Assembly: GCF_009931435.1 (NCBI RefSeq)
Contig: NZ_CP043414.1
From: Escherichia coli
GTDB lineage: Bacteria > Pseudomonadota > Gammaproteobacteria > Enterobacterales > Enterobacteriaceae
Length of the DNA: 64,000 nt
Direction: 5' to 3' (one strand)
The first letter of the stretch is position 1, and every line of letters starts with the position of its first letter. Shown here in pieces: positions 2,728-59,034 of this stretch. A model generated the notes under the pieces. It searched no databases. It saw only the letters and a list, made by a program, of their open reading frames with translations, and was not told the DNA's origin. The position numbers were made by a program, and so were the translations under genes.

Positions 2728-2758
2728 GAGTTCCTGTCTTAAGCCACTTGCCGAAGTC

Positions 2759-2775
2759 AATTGGTCTTACCAATT
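2759..2775. promoter_or_regulatory. PdhR operator palindrome AATTGGTCTTACCAATT in pdhR promoter region
   Basis: Perfect inverted repeat ATTGGT-N3-ACCAAT read directly in sequence about 32 bp upstream of the pdhR start; matches the PdhR box consensus from memory. Confidence 0.7.
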
Positions 2776-3179
2776 TCATGTCTGTGACGCTAAAGTAACA
2801 AAGTATTCACCTCATGTCCATACAGGTTTTGATTGAAATCATGAAACTGTGCACATTTTAACAAGTTGACATATATAACGTTTCAAAGTTGTAACTATGC
2901 ACAAATGTAGACTTTACGTAGGAAAGGGATTTTTTAACGATTATTAAACTATAAAAATCCGAATTGAACCGATTCACTTACCAATTTATCGATTTTTAAT
3001 TCAAAAATAATGAATTTATATTCATTTTGTATGTTGAGGGGATTTGAGGCTGACCTTTACAAACGGTTCCTTTTTAAGCAACTCATCTTCAACCATGCAT
3101 AAAGCGGGTGCATTCGCTGCCGCATACCATTATTCTTTATCTGACGGAAGTCCTTTTGTAACAATTCAAACGTCTTTGA

Positions 3180-35181: not shown

Positions 35182-35734
35182 AAGGAGTTTACGGAGCGGA
35201 GGAAAAGCTTGTCAAGCCAGTCACAAGGCATACCGAGGTAAAAAACCCGATGTTTACGGCTAATATCAGCGTTGTTTATTTTACGTCCAACGTGCGAAGC
35301 AAATTAACGTTATGAATAGCTGTAAGAAAAAATCCCTCATCGTCATCACCGTTTTAAAATGACTAACTATTTTCCACAGCAAATATAAAGTGTCAGTTTG
35401 CGACGCGAGCGGCATTTTAGGACATATCTTCCCCGGTTAACAGTCCCTGTTGCGTCTGTGTGGCGCTTGATGCCAGCAGGTTTGCGCAAAAGCAAAGAAA
35501 AGTGTTTGTTAAATCGGCAATTCATCTCTGCATGTAACAAAATAATGCAAAAACGCTCTGTCAATATTGCTTAATTATTGTGAATTTCAGCAGGTGAGTT
35601 AATTAATGGGCGGGTTTAAAAGCATTTATCAATAATAGCCAGGAATAGTCTTATTTACTTTAAGGATATTGATGTCCATTCCCGTACTCGACGCGCCAAT
35701 GAGAAATTCACTGGCGCGTATTTTTGTTCGCGGC

Positions 35735-37412: not shown

Positions 37413-39137
37413 TCAGGTTCTCTCCGTTTTGCTTAACCACATTTCATCCATTCCACCCCCGCGAATCTGCATCGGGTAGACGTGCTCACTGCCATCGACG
37501 GTAACATCAACAAAGACCAGACGATTATTGCGCACCTGTTCCAGCGCCTCGCTAAGTTTGCTTTCCAGCTCTTGCGGATGAGAAATCTGGATCCCAACAT
37601 GCCCATAGGCTTCCGCCAGACGGACGAAATCGGGTAGCGATTGCATATAAGATTGTGAATGGCGGCCGGAATAGATCATGTCCTGCCACTGCTTCACCAT
37701 CCCCAGATAGCGATTATTAAGATTCACCACCAATACCGGCAACTCGTATTGCAAGGCGGTAGACAGTTCCTGAATGTTCATCTGAATACTGCCGTCACCA
37801 GTGACGCAAACCACGGTTTCTTCTGGCAGCGCCATTTTGACGCCCAGTGCCGCAGGTAAACCAAACCCCATCGTGCCGAGGCCACCAGAGTTAATCCAGC
37901 GACGCGGTTTGTCGAAAGGATAATAAAGTGCGGCGAACATCTGGTGCTGCCCGACATCAGACGTCACGTAAGCGTCCCCCTTCGTCAGTCGCCAAAGAGT
38001 CTCGATAACCGCCTGCGGTTTAATCTTTTCACTGTGAATATCGTATTTCAGGCACTGACGAGCACGCCACTGTTCAATCTGCTGCCACCAATCGCGGATC
38101 TCATCCAGCGGTTGATGGGCAGATTCTTGCGACAGGAGTTCAAGTATTTGTTCGAGGACCTGGCGGGCATCTCCAACAATCGGGATATCAGCAGTCACAG
38201 TTTTAGAAATGGAAGTAGGATCAATATCGATATGCAGAACCGTGGCATTTGGGCAGTACTTCGCCAGATTGTTCGTCGTTCGATCATCAAAACGTACCCC
38301 GACGGCAAAAATCACATCCGCGTTATGCATCGTCATATTGGCTTCGTAGGTACCGTGCATTCCCAACATGCCCAGTGCCTGACGATGCGTTGCTGGAAAC
38401 GCCCCCAGCCCCATTAATGAGGAAACAACGGGCAGATTCAACGCCTCCACCGTGTCTTTCAACTGCTGATGGCAGCCCGCCGTGATTGCCCCACCGCCTA
38501 CATACACAACCGGTTTTTTTGCCGCCACCAGCGTTTGCAGAGCGCGCTTAATTTGCCCTTTATGTCCGGAGGTCGTGGGATTATAAGACCGCATACTGAC
38601 CGACTCCGGCCAGACATAGGGTAATTTGTTCGCCGGATTTAGAATATCTTTCGGTAAATCAACGACCACGGGTCCAGGACGACCACTTGCCGCCAGCCAG
38701 AAAGCCTTTTTCAGCACCTGCGGAATGTCTTCCGTTTGCTTAACCAGAAAACTGTGCTTCACCACTGGGCGGGAAATTCCCACCATGTCGCACTCCTGAA
38801 AAGCATCGTAGCCTATCAACGAAGTTGCTACCTGCCCGGAAAGAACAACCAAGGGAATGGAGTCCATATAAGCGGTGGCGATGCCGGTAATCGCATTGGT
38901 CGCCCCTGGCCCCGATGTTACCAGCACGACGCCGACTTCCCCGGTCGCGCGTGCCAGACCATCGGCCATATGCACCGCCGCCTGCTCATGACGAACTAAT
39001 ACATGATCGATACCACCCACGGTATGCAATGCATCGTAAATATCAAGGACCGCGCCTCCGGGATAACCGAATACTTGTTTAACGCCCTGATCGATAAGCG
39101 ATCGGACGACCATCTCGGCTCCAGACAACATCTCCAT
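37413..39137 (-). CDS. ilvI: Acetolactate synthase III large subunit, 574 aa
   Basis: Track ORF 37413..39149 trimmed to [37 protein letters not shown]... (TPP enzyme). Confidence 0.94.
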
Positions 39138-39453
39138 GGCCTGCCTCACTGTTTAACGGAAAAATGTGTAAAACACATTAACCGCCCGATCTTGCTTAAG
39201 CAATTGGTAGCCAGAGACATAAATACGAGGTAATAAGAATAAACAGGAGGAAAGGTGAAAAGAAACGATAAAATCCTCCATTACGGAGGATTAAATTGAT
39301 AATAAATCGGCTAAATCCCACAACTTACAGCAATTTCTCTATTTTTTTAATTAATCCTAAAATAGTGAACTCACACATTCAGAATAAAATTCTATATTCA
39401 ATAAAAAATACAGAATAAATCAGTAATCAATATCTGACCTATTCTGCATTCAG
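39138..39453. promoter_or_regulatory. AT-rich ilvIH promoter / Lrp-binding region
   Basis: Position immediately upstream of ilvI, strongly AT-rich; the ilvIH promoter is a classic Lrp-activated promoter. Individual sites not resolved. Confidence 0.5.
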
Positions 39454-40398
39454 TTAGCGTTTGCAAATTGAGACTAATTGCTCTTCCATCCACTGATGGC
39501 CTTTGTCGCGCCCGGCAGCTTCATGCCAGGAGAGATAACAGGTTCTGCTATTTTGTTTTAATGGCAGCGGTAATACCTGTAACTCTAAAGATTCAGCGAA
39601 CTCTTCAGCCAGCCAACGCGGCGCAATAGCGACCAGATGCGTTTGCGACACCACGCTCAGTACACTCATCATTGCCATGCCCTGATACGCGATACTGGCT
39701 TGTTTATCTACCGTGTCATACCACGGTTGACTAAATGACGCGAAACGATCGAGCGAAACTGCCGCATGTTGTTCGTTATAAACATCATGTTTCAGTAACG
39801 GGCCTTTAATTGTTGGATGATTTTTGCTGGCTACCAGCACCATTTCATCTTTAAATAATGGCACACTGGTAAATTCAGGACGATGGAAGTCTTCATAACT
39901 AATCACAAACTCCGTTTCCTGATAACGCAGTTGATGTTCAGTGTTCTGATTTAATGAAGACTTGAACATAACATGTATATTTGGCGCAGTTTGCTCAATG
40001 TGATTATAAATCTGCGAGGTCAGAATGCTGTCTAACGGACTGCAAACACAAAGATGAAATACACGTTCACTGCTCGCGGGTTCAAAACCTGAACCTGGCA
40101 ATTCATTTTGTACTAATTGCAATGCCTGACGAACTGAACCAAAAAGTTGAAATGCGCGAGCAGTCGGTTGAATGCCACGGCCATAACGAACAAAAAGCTC
40201 GTCATTAAACATCACCTTCAGGCGTGCAACCGCGTTACTGACCGCAGGTTGCGACATCCCCAGAACATGAGCGGCACGGGTGATGTTTTGCTCCTGCATC
40301 ACGGCATCGAAAACGGTTAATAAGTTGAGATCGACCATGCGTAGTTGTGGCTTGCTTAACTCCGCCGTCTCTGGTTGATCTGTTTGTACCTCTGGCAT
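39454..40398 (-). CDS. leuO: LysR-family transcriptional regulator LeuO, 314 aa
   Basis: Track ORF 39454..40482 trimmed to [60 protein letters not shown]... Confidence 0.93.
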
Positions 40399-41056
40399 AC
40401 TTAACTCCACTGTCACACTTAACTCCCTTTCCCTTATTGGAATGCAGAGAAATAATCCTCGAGAATATGATTTATCATGCATATAAAATAAGAAAAAGGA
40501 AAATGAGAAAAATTAGGAAAACATAAAGATACGGGTTCTTATAAAAACAGAACCCATTGCCGAGTAAAGAGTCATTTACCGCAGCATAATAATCCATAAT
40601 GTTTTTGTTGCGAAAACAATCTAATCATAACTACCGCGAATACTCAATCATCCACAAAATGGATTAAATGTGCTTTTTTAATAATTAATTTATATGTTTA
40701 ATGCATTAATTCTTAACATTAATAGAACAATAATATTCACCAAATGAATATCAAAAAATTAGCAAAACATATAATTCAATACAAATCATCAAGATAGGTT
40801 TTGTAACGCGTGCATTTTATCCCCCTTTTCCTCGTTGATTAGATGCAAAAATTTATTCTGAAATATGTCAACCGATGAAAAGCGTCGGTGGTTAAGCAGA
40901 AATTAATATCGCTTGTTTTAACCACCGCAGCACAATTAGCTAATTTGACGAATGCAGAACTCACTCTGGCGGAACGTTTTTGTTGCGTCAGGGTTGACAT
41001 CCGTTTTTGTATCCAGTAACTCTAAAAGCATATCGTATTCATCTGGAGCTGATTTA
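40399..41056. promoter_or_regulatory. AT-rich leuO-leuL divergent control region (H-NS/LeuO-controlled, promoter relay region)
   Basis: ~660 bp strongly AT-rich spacer between divergent leuO and leuLABCD, as in K-12; regulatory role from literature, sites not resolved. Confidence 0.5.
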
Positions 41057-41143
41057 ATGACTCACATCGTTCGCTTTATCGGTCTACTACTACTAAACGC
41101 ATCTTCTTTGCGCGGTAGACGAGTGAGCGGCATTCAGCATTAA
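41057..41143 (+). CDS. leuL: leu operon leader peptide, 28 aa, four consecutive CUA Leu codons
   Basis: Track ORF 40952..41143 trimmed to ATG at 41057: [28 protein letters not shown]; ggt cta cta cta cta aac read in sequence. Confidence 0.92.
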
Positions 41144-41165
41144 GCCAGCACGCAGTCAAACAAAA

Positions 41166-41193
41166 AACCCGCGCCATTGCGCGGGTTTTTTTA
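41166..41193 (+). terminator. leu attenuator terminator
   Basis: CCCGCGC-catt-GCGCGGG followed by TTTTTTTT between leuL and leuA. Confidence 0.85.
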
Positions 41194-41235
41194 TGCCCGA
41201 AGCGAGGCGCTCAAAAAGAGACAAGGACCCAAACC

Positions 41236-43898
<2,663 letters not shown>

Positions 43899-58063: not shown

Positions 58064-58407
58064 TTCATCATCCTTTTCTTATACTTCTGGGGTAAAATAT
58101 CCGTTATAACGCCTTCACCTATAAATCCGGCTTCCCACAGCAGAAACTCACTGCCACAGCTGATCCACGGCATTACAAGTTCAGGATTTAAAAACGCCAT
58201 CTCAAGATTGTGTACCATTTCGCCAGGGTGAATCGTTTTTCCATAGCCGTCGATGTAAATCCGGCAGCCATAACCATATGAAGATAACTCATTAATCCCT
58301 TTAAAAAAGACAGGACAGCCGTAAAAACGGTTAGATGATAACAAAGGGCCACGATGCGATTTTTGCGTTGAAGAGTATAGTGTAATGGTAATCCGAACCT
58401 TTCTCAT
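58060..58407 (-). CDS. Hypothetical protein, 115 aa, no recognisable family
   Basis: Track ORF; ATG preceded by GGAGGG SD (minus strand TTCGGAGGGAAGATG); translationally coupled to the downstream SUKH-like ORF (4-nt overlap). Confidence 0.6.
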   Translation of the reverse strand: MRKVRITITLYSSTQKSHRGPLLSSNRFYGCPVFFKGINELSSYGYGCRIYIDGYGKTIHPGEMVHNLEMAFLNPELVMPWISCGSEFLLWEAGFIGEGVITDILPQKYKKRMMK

Positions 58408-58419
58408 CTTCCCTCCGAA

Positions 58420-58752
58420 TTAATTACGCTCTTCAATCAAATATGTCGTTTTATTAGTCCAGGCGATTATTTTATAGGGTCTGTTAATAATACCTTTCTG
58501 CGTATAATCAGCCATAATTTCTGATGGATACCAACCATAACCAAAGCAAAATAAAGCACCTACATTAATAAGCTCACTAATTACACTTAGTTTCTCATTT
58601 TCATTACTGGTATTTTTGCTAAATCGATCATTGTCGGCAGAAAAACCCAACCGTTGCATTTTTTCAACGTTATCATATCCGGTCACTACCGTTTCAATGA
58701 AATTATCACTTATGCTAACCACTATAATACAATCGCTCGGCAGTGTGTTCAT
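58420..58752 (-). CDS. Hypothetical protein, 110 aa, no recognisable family
   Basis: Track ORF; ATG start; 12-nt gap to next ORF; AT-rich upstream region 58753-58975 likely holds the promoter. Confidence 0.55.
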   Translation of the reverse strand: MNTLPSDCIIVVSISDNFIETVVTGYDNVEKMQRLGFSADNDRFSKNTSNENEKLSVISELINVGALFCFGYGWYPSEIMADYTQKGIINRPYKIIAWTNKTTYLIEERN

Positions 58753-58975
58753 TTCCCCTTGATCCTTCTAAAGTCATTTTTTCACCACAACAATGAATTC
58801 AATAGATATAATGAATATATGCAGCCATTTATATATAATTAGCATTACACCCTAATGCCTTAATATAACCCAAACAGAAATCGTCCGATAATCAGAAAAT
58901 GTAATCATTGAATAAAGCAGGAACCTTTTTATCGCATGAGAAACCGAAGATGGTTGATGCCGTTTCGTCAAACAT

Positions 58976-58995
58976 TACTGTACAAAATATCAGTG
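58976..58995. promoter_or_regulatory. LexA-box-like sequence upstream of polB (one mismatch to CTGT-N8-ACAG)
   Basis: TACTGTACAAAATATCAGTG: CTGT-N8-TCAG. polB is a known SOS gene; the K-12 box as I recall (CTGTATAAAACCACAG) is a perfect match, this one is not. Confidence 0.45.
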
Positions 58996-59001
58996 TTCAG
59001 T

Positions 59002-59034
59002 AAAAAACCAGGCTATAATCAAGCCTGGTTTTTT
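59002..59034. terminator. A-run/hairpin/T-run element just upstream of polB (hairpin loop contains TATAAT)
   Basis: AAAAAACCAGGCTATAATCAAGCCTGGTTTTTT; perfect 7-bp stem CCAGGCT/AGCCTGG. Could terminate transcription from either side and/or supply the polB -10. Confidence 0.55.

Follow-up and report, generated by a model that had tools for sequence, protein, structure and literature searches.

The closest described relatives of the locus considered here are the leu attenuators of Salmonella and of Escherichia coli K-12. The Salmonella attenuator was the subject of work by Gemmill et al. (1979) and by Carter, Bartkus and Calvo (1986), both cited in PMC1183508, and the rationale for the rare CUA as the most sensitive control codon is discussed in the same article. 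In the K-12 leader, ribosome profiling and RNA-seq showed that impairment of the decoding tRNA makes ribosomes pause at the four CUA codons; the RNA density falls 29-fold from leuL to leuA in control cells but only 4-fold under induced pausing, and with UUA in place of CUA a leuL-leuA'-nLuc reporter is induced 2.7-fold instead of 11.5-fold (PMC8384417). On the other side of the leu promoter, the E. coli leuO gene has a distal promoter, P1, and a proximal one, P2, and both are targets of repression by H-NS and StpA; BglJ-RcsB, bound about 70 bp upstream, activates P2, and LeuO counteracts this activation (PMC3950696, PMC5025477). These units are described as coupled in a promoter relay, in which transcription of ilvIH activates leuO and transcription of leuO activates leuABCD via supercoiling (PMC4770239, PMC4264507). 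The first description of the relay was in Salmonella Typhimurium, in the leu-500/topA context, with a report in E. coli following later. Work on the relay and on the H-NS-silenced promoter region of leuO includes that of Fang and Wu (1998), Chen et al. (2005) and Stratmann et al. (2012), cited in PMC4264507, PMC4770239 and PMC3950696.

The locus studied in this work lies in a 64-kb stretch of E. coli DNA, which we analysed as a whole and call the window. The original prediction had taken positions 40399 to 41236 for a leuO-leuLABCD control region with nothing unusual about it. These limits are well placed, as they run from the first base after the leuO start codon to the A of the leuA start codon, and the name is borne out by the RefSeq annotation, by the NCBIfam models for LeuL, LeuO and LeuA and by the Rfam model Leu_leader, which all agree. 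The genes follow the order ilvI, yabR, leuO, leuL, leuA, leuB, leuC, as annotated in RefSeq for strains SMS-3-5 and K-12 MG1655, with the locus inverted in orientation relative to the K-12 numbering; leuO and leuL are divergent, and ilvI is located downstream of leuO. The 838-bp region was matched in 5,399 of 5,426 complete E. coli genomes, and the best matches, SMS-3-5 included, were 99.9% identical. We have hardly any doubt that it is the native, canonical leu operon control region of the E. coli chromosome, a known and ordinary element in its normal state, and we found no evidence contradicting the canonical leu attenuator account. The features are as follows.

39454-40398, minus strand: leuO, LysR-type regulator of 314 aa, ATG at 40398 (complement of 40396-40398), following the RefSeq annotation of SMS-3-5 and K-12
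40399-41056: non-coding spacer of 658 bp between the divergent leuO and leuL, with the leu promoter towards its right end
40462-40529: conserved block of the spacer, about 65-130 bp upstream of the leuO ATG, common to 20 other Enterobacteriaceae species
40994-40999, plus strand: -35 hexamer of the leu promoter, TTGACA
41017-41022, plus strand: putative -10 hexamer, TAACTC, 17 bp after the -35 hexamer, proposed from spacing and conservation
41043-41192, plus strand: leu leader RNA (attenuator), Rfam RF00512 Leu_leader
41057-41143, plus strand: leuL leader peptide ORF, 28 codons and TAA
41084-41095, plus strand: CUA control codons Leu10 to Leu13, exactly four in succession, also within the 5' strand of the inner protector helix
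41110-41115, plus strand: switch segment GCGCGG, predicted to pair either upstream (protector) or with 41169-41174 (antiterminator)
41162-41192, plus strand: intrinsic terminator, with stem 41162-41174 : 41179-41191, loop CAUU at 41175-41178 and a U7 run at 41186-41192
41236-42807, plus strand: leuA (2-isopropylmalate synthase), the first structural gene under attenuator control

All three proteins matched NCBIfam equivalog models well above the cut-offs: LeuL to NF007397 (80.9 bits, cut-off 59), LeuO to NF007063 (572.5 bits, cut-off 262) and LeuA to NF002084 (1047 bits, cut-off 748). A 342-aa version of leuO, which would start from an upstream in-frame ATG at 40482, was rejected, as it is merely the longest ORF found mechanically and both RefSeq and NCBIfam favour 314 aa. 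On the far side of leuO, the gap between leuO and ilvI (39150-39453) forms a second AT-rich spacer, with 30.9% GC. It holds yabR, a tiny annotated gene lying at about 39255-39299 on the plus strand (by transfer of coordinates from K-12), and a terminator-like hairpin was seen within yabR on the minus strand, at 39292-39272, downstream of leuO.

The leader was recognised over its full length by the Rfam model (RF00512, plus strand, positions 1-148 of the 148 in the model), with 147.5 bits where the gathering score is 50 (E = 7.3e-34). Leu_leader was the only family to pass its gathering score, the matches to the Thr, Phe and Trp leaders being weak, below threshold and derived from the terminator part. 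The leuL ORF is preceded by GGAG at 41045-41048, eight nt before the ATG. The 12-mer of its CUA run, CTACTACTACTA, occurs once in the 64-kb window and in none of 100 dinucleotide-preserving shuffles. In 30 long ORFs of the window, 51 of the 1,445 leucine codons (3.5%) are CTA, so that four in a row would be expected from usage alone with a probability of about 1.6e-6. The DNA of leuL is identical to that of SMS-3-5. Compared to K-12 MG1655, the leader shows two differences only, a T in place of C at position 41036 of the 5' UTR and ATT instead of ATC at Ile26, which is synonymous; nothing changes in the leuL peptide, the CUA codons or the switch segment, and the terminator hairpin is the same base for base. 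As the differences from K-12 are silent, calling the leader and attenuator "intact", as the original prediction did, is justified, and its count of four consecutive CUA codons and its description of an unbroken terminator hairpin with a U-run were likewise correct. The 166-bp leader is present at full length in all 5,399 matching complete E. coli genomes, where it is typically 98.8% identical, a value that corresponds to the two K-12-type differences.

Upstream of the leader, the -35 hexamer of the leu promoter is a perfect TTGACA, which is also present in 99 of the 112 upstream regions of orthologous loci, with 62-64 nt to the leuL ATG as the commonest distance. The putative -10 hexamer, TAACTC, is a poor match to TATAAT. 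It is found in 9 leaders (Escherichia loci among those listed), and other Enterobacterales have TACCAC (36 leaders), TACCAA (28) or TATCAA (17) at this position; all these variants are weak and stand beside a perfect -35. A simple consensus promoter scan over 39000-41600 did not return the leu promoter on the plus strand, because its -10 hexamer has too few matches. Transcription would start near 41030, the position expected from K-12.

The stem of the terminator consists of 7 G-C and 6 A-U pairs, and the hairpin alone folds at -20.2 kcal/mol. It too escaped a simple consensus scan, which over 39000-41600 listed no attenuator hairpin on the plus strand, probably because the stem extends through A-U pairs and thereby consumes the U-run, so that the tail holds too few T's. 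The misses of the terminator scan and of the promoter scan are limitations of the tools rather than signs of absence. More generally, simple terminator scanners can overlook attenuators in which the U-run pairs with an upstream A-run. The hairpin is also symmetric, its 5' side bearing A6 and its 3' side U7, such that the reverse complement is again a hairpin followed by U6. On the minus strand, 41161-41215 matched Leu_leader at 33.7 bits, below the gathering score of 50. The attenuator hairpin could in principle terminate transcription in both directions, and we know of no antisense transcript at the attenuator.

We then considered the alternative structures of the leader RNA. Positions 41022-41200 fold at -58.3 kcal/mol, compared to -40.9 ± 4.1 kcal/mol for shuffled sequences, none of which folded as well (z = -4.3); the z-scores obtained for the leader fold against shuffles were -4.3 and -3.3. 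The unconstrained minimum-energy structure, at -55.7 kcal/mol, combines the protector, a long helix, and the terminator. The inner protector pairs join 41082-41088 to 41114-41120 and 41098-41101 to 41109-41112, with the CUA codons in the 5' strand. When the full leader was folded at equilibrium with a ribosome masked on a leucine codon, the terminator was always retained. As the terminator always wins at equilibrium, the switch must be kinetic, and this type of folding was replaced by (i) folding of 3'-truncated RNA and (ii) folding of the downstream RNA only. With the RNA cut at 41175-41178, short of the 3' arm of the terminator, and the ribosome on Leu10 or Leu12, the truncated model predicted the six-bp pairing of GCGCGG (41110-41115) with CCGCGC (41169-41174). 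With the mask on Leu13, the minimum-energy fold of the truncated RNA was a different one that pairs across the ribosome; this fold is physically doubtful, and the point was settled by the downstream-only model. In the latter, the ribosome was assumed to reach 12 or 15 nt further 3' than the first base of the A-site codon. All six antiterminator pairs were then formed with the A site on Leu10 through Leu13, four pairs with the A site one or two codons past the run, and none from Ala15/Ser16 onward or at the stop codon. Thus, the antiterminator is predicted to exclude the terminator and to form only with a ribosome stalled on the CUA run, being lost two to three codons later. By a thermodynamic model and an assumed footprint, on which this result for the CUA positions is based, the four CUA codons would be the last positions whose stalled ribosome leaves the switch strand exposed, which fits the textbook model. 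The folding of alternative structures, which had been suggested at the outset, thus yields a terminator and an antiterminator that are mutually exclusive in these models.

Comparison with other species tells which parts of this architecture have been kept. A DNA-pattern scan of species-representative genomes with the pattern CTNCTNCTNAACGCATNNNNNNTGCGC recovered 120 loci, all from Enterobacterales except for three chance matches, and 109 distinct leaders were aligned with that of the window, giving 110 leaders. The G-C stem of the terminator and both arms of the antiterminator are invariant in all 110, with the reservation that the retrieval pattern itself dictated five of the six bases in the antiterminator 5' arm; it placed no constraint on the 3' arm or on the terminator. 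As the antiterminator helix does not vary, covariation cannot support it, and its invariance is a sign of conservation and not a proof of pairing. Pairing in the inner protector helix reaches 97.8% across the 110 leaders, and one of its pairs covaries, being U-A in 60 leaders and C-G in 37. The outer protector helices of the E. coli fold are 50-70% paired across Enterobacterales; judging from the aligned leaders, the outer pairs are not conserved as drawn for E. coli, and only the inner helix and the terminator appear to be strongly kept. When the stalled-ribosome model was applied to each leader, a six-pair antiterminator was predicted in 107 of the 110; the remaining three are predicted to form four or five pairs. 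The number of consecutive leucine codons is four in 52 leaders and three in 58.

These data are consistent with the following scheme, which builds on the sequence elements, the family membership, the conservation and the mutually exclusive folds observed here. Transcription would start at the inferred leu promoter, from TTGACA at 40994-40999 and the weak -10 near 41017-41022, and would give a leader RNA of about 160 nt. When leucine is plentiful, ribosomes would pass the four CUA codons of leuL, and GCGCGG at 41110-41115 would be masked, by the ribosome itself or by pairing in the protector helix, where the CUA codons are part of the 5' strand (41082-41101); the terminator and U7 run at 41162-41192 would then form, and most transcripts would end before leuA. 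When charged tRNA-Leu(CUA) is scarce, a ribosome would stall on the CUA run and cover the 5' strand of the protector. This stall would free GCGCGG to pair with the 5' arm of the terminator (CCGCGC, 41169-41174) while the 3' arm has yet to be transcribed. Once the antiterminator has formed, RNA polymerase would continue into leuABCD. The spacer, for its part, would carry the divergent leuO promoters, which the literature describes as subject to H-NS/StpA silencing, BglJ-RcsB activation and LeuO autoregulation, and the transcription of leuO may be coupled to the leu promoter by transcription-driven supercoiling, as the literature proposes. For the leucine-dependent readthrough, the transcription start, the binding of proteins to the spacer and the supercoiling effects, the scheme draws on published work.

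It could be argued that the hairpin at 41162-41192 acts chiefly as a terminator, constitutive or bidirectional, that shields leuA from upstream or antisense transcription, and that leucine control is exerted through regulators of the promoter (Lrp, LeuO, supercoiling). The symmetry of the hairpin, with its A6 and U7 sides, and the terminator-like character of its reverse complement, which matches Leu_leader at a sub-threshold 33.7 bits (gathering score 50), would suit such a function, as would the heavily regulated AT-rich spacer that the leu promoter adjoins. An insulator leaves aside, however, that an ORF with four rare cognate codons is found exactly where, in the folding model, a stalled ribosome would free the antiterminator strand, an arrangement conserved in 107 of the 110 leaders. 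Moreover, no minus-strand gene or promoter is known to need a terminator at this place, and CUA-dependent readthrough has been published for K-12 (PMC8384417). We thus regard a mere insulator as very improbable, and ribosome-mediated attenuation remains our reading of the hairpin.

Less probable still, to the point of being barely credible, is that the leader only looks right and that the attenuator is defunct in this strain, leaving the operon constitutively on or off. The two base differences from K-12 (41036 T/C and Ile26 ATT/ATC) are what speaks for it, but they amount to one change in the 5' UTR and one synonymous change, which leave the CUA codons, GCGCGG and the terminator untouched. 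Other complete genomes carry the same allele (100% identity), the Rfam model is matched from end to end, and the peptide, the CUA run, the switch and the terminator are those of K-12.

The spacer between leuO and leuL, at 658 bp (40399-41056), is slightly shorter than the 660 bp of the original prediction and one bp short of its K-12 counterpart (659), and its AT-rich character, also predicted, holds: its GC content is 32.5%, compared to 52.4% for the whole window, and the lowest-GC stretch of 658 bp in the 64-kb window begins at 40401. A stretch of 100 bp from 40674 has 15% GC. Elsewhere in the window, 200-bp windows below 33% GC were also seen at 2752-3140, 35480-35688 and 58406-59008. The divergent orientation of leuO recurs in 63 loci of other Enterobacterales species for which the flank was long enough; the spacers there measure 427-1055 bp (median 644), with a median GC of 0.352 against 0.464 for leuO. 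By contrast to these, no LeuO homologue (E <= 1e-20) was found beside the leu leader in those loci of Erwinia, Pantoea, Mixta, Pectobacterium and Dickeya whose upstream flank extends over several kb; the loci that lack an adjoining LeuO homologue are L014, L043, L046, L047, L049, L053, L062, L068, L087, L106, L112 and L120. The divergent leuO arrangement seems to be confined, among the loci fetched, to Enterobacteriaceae, Yersinia and Serratia.

Within Enterobacteriaceae, parts of the spacer are well conserved. A MAFFT alignment of 21 spacers, in which blocks were defined by a 20-nt mean identity of at least 0.8, delimited conserved stretches at about 40396-40430, 40462-40529, 40618-40632 and 40934-40950, plus one over the leu promoter. 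The block at 40462-40529 probably belongs to the proximal promoter of leuO or to regulator sites; together with those at 40618-40632 and 40934-40950, it is likely to represent regulator or promoter sites for leuO or leu. Within E. coli, the spacer is distinctly more variable than the leader, as it is 90-95% identical in most genomes, against 98.8% for the leader. It has diverged by about 5% from K-12 (roughly 35 substitutions and one 1-bp indel). When 631 bp of it (40399-41029) were used as the query, 3,050 E. coli genomes were 90-95% identical, and under 80% of the query was aligned in 21 genomes. The incomplete alignments suggest that these 21 genomes carry insertions or deletions upstream of leuO.

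That the AT-rich spacer is what remains of horizontally acquired or mobile DNA, and not a native regulatory region, has next to no chance of being right, since its low GC (32.5% against 52.4% for the window) and its greater divergence within E. coli are outweighed by its presence at the same place in 5,399 of 5,426 genomes, by the divergent leuO and similar-sized AT-rich spacer in 63 loci of other Enterobacterales species, by the conserved blocks that run through it and by the lack of repeats or transposase ORFs in the ORF list. The spacer is thus best read as a native part of the leu control region. The term "promoter relay", which the original prediction applied to it, is a label given by position and by the literature; what the sequence provides are the prerequisites only, namely the gene order, the divergent promoters and the AT-rich spacer. 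As the spacer is about 5% off K-12 and most E. coli are 90-95% identical, a lineage-specific control of leuO is conceivable. One might speculate that the spacer could hold such lineage-specific control by H-NS, LeuO or BglJ-RcsB, and that the attenuator might also terminate antisense transcription out of leuA, but we would give this only an outside chance. The value of the locus lies in its annotation, as an intact canonical leu attenuator and leuO control region in a phylogroup-F-like E. coli.

Among the known systems, the trp, his, thr, ilv and phe attenuators of enteric bacteria are likewise ribosome-mediated, the choice between antiterminator and terminator being set by codons for the operon's own amino acid; they differ from the leu leader in their regulatory codons and belong to other RNA families. 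With the ilvIH-leuO-leuABCD relay, or H-NS-silenced leuO region, the locus shares the gene order, the orientation and an AT-rich spacer, about 660 bp long, between divergent genes. It was mainly in Salmonella, in leu-500/topA backgrounds, that the relay was defined. The spacer of this strain is about 5% off K-12. The leu attenuator of Salmonella Typhimurium, an orthologue in another genus, has the same mechanism and architecture and also relies on rare CUA codons, whose replacement by CUG lowers the sensitivity of control (Carter et al. 1986, discussed in PMC1183508); by the description in PMC1183508, three CUA codons were replaced there, against the four CUA codons of the leader studied here. 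The closest system remains the leu attenuator of E. coli K-12 (Wessler and Calvo 1981; RF00512). It shares with the locus the 28-aa peptide, the four CUA codons, the GCGCGG segment, the terminator, the U7 run and the distance to leuA, and the leader differs from it by two silent substitutions, with no structural difference.
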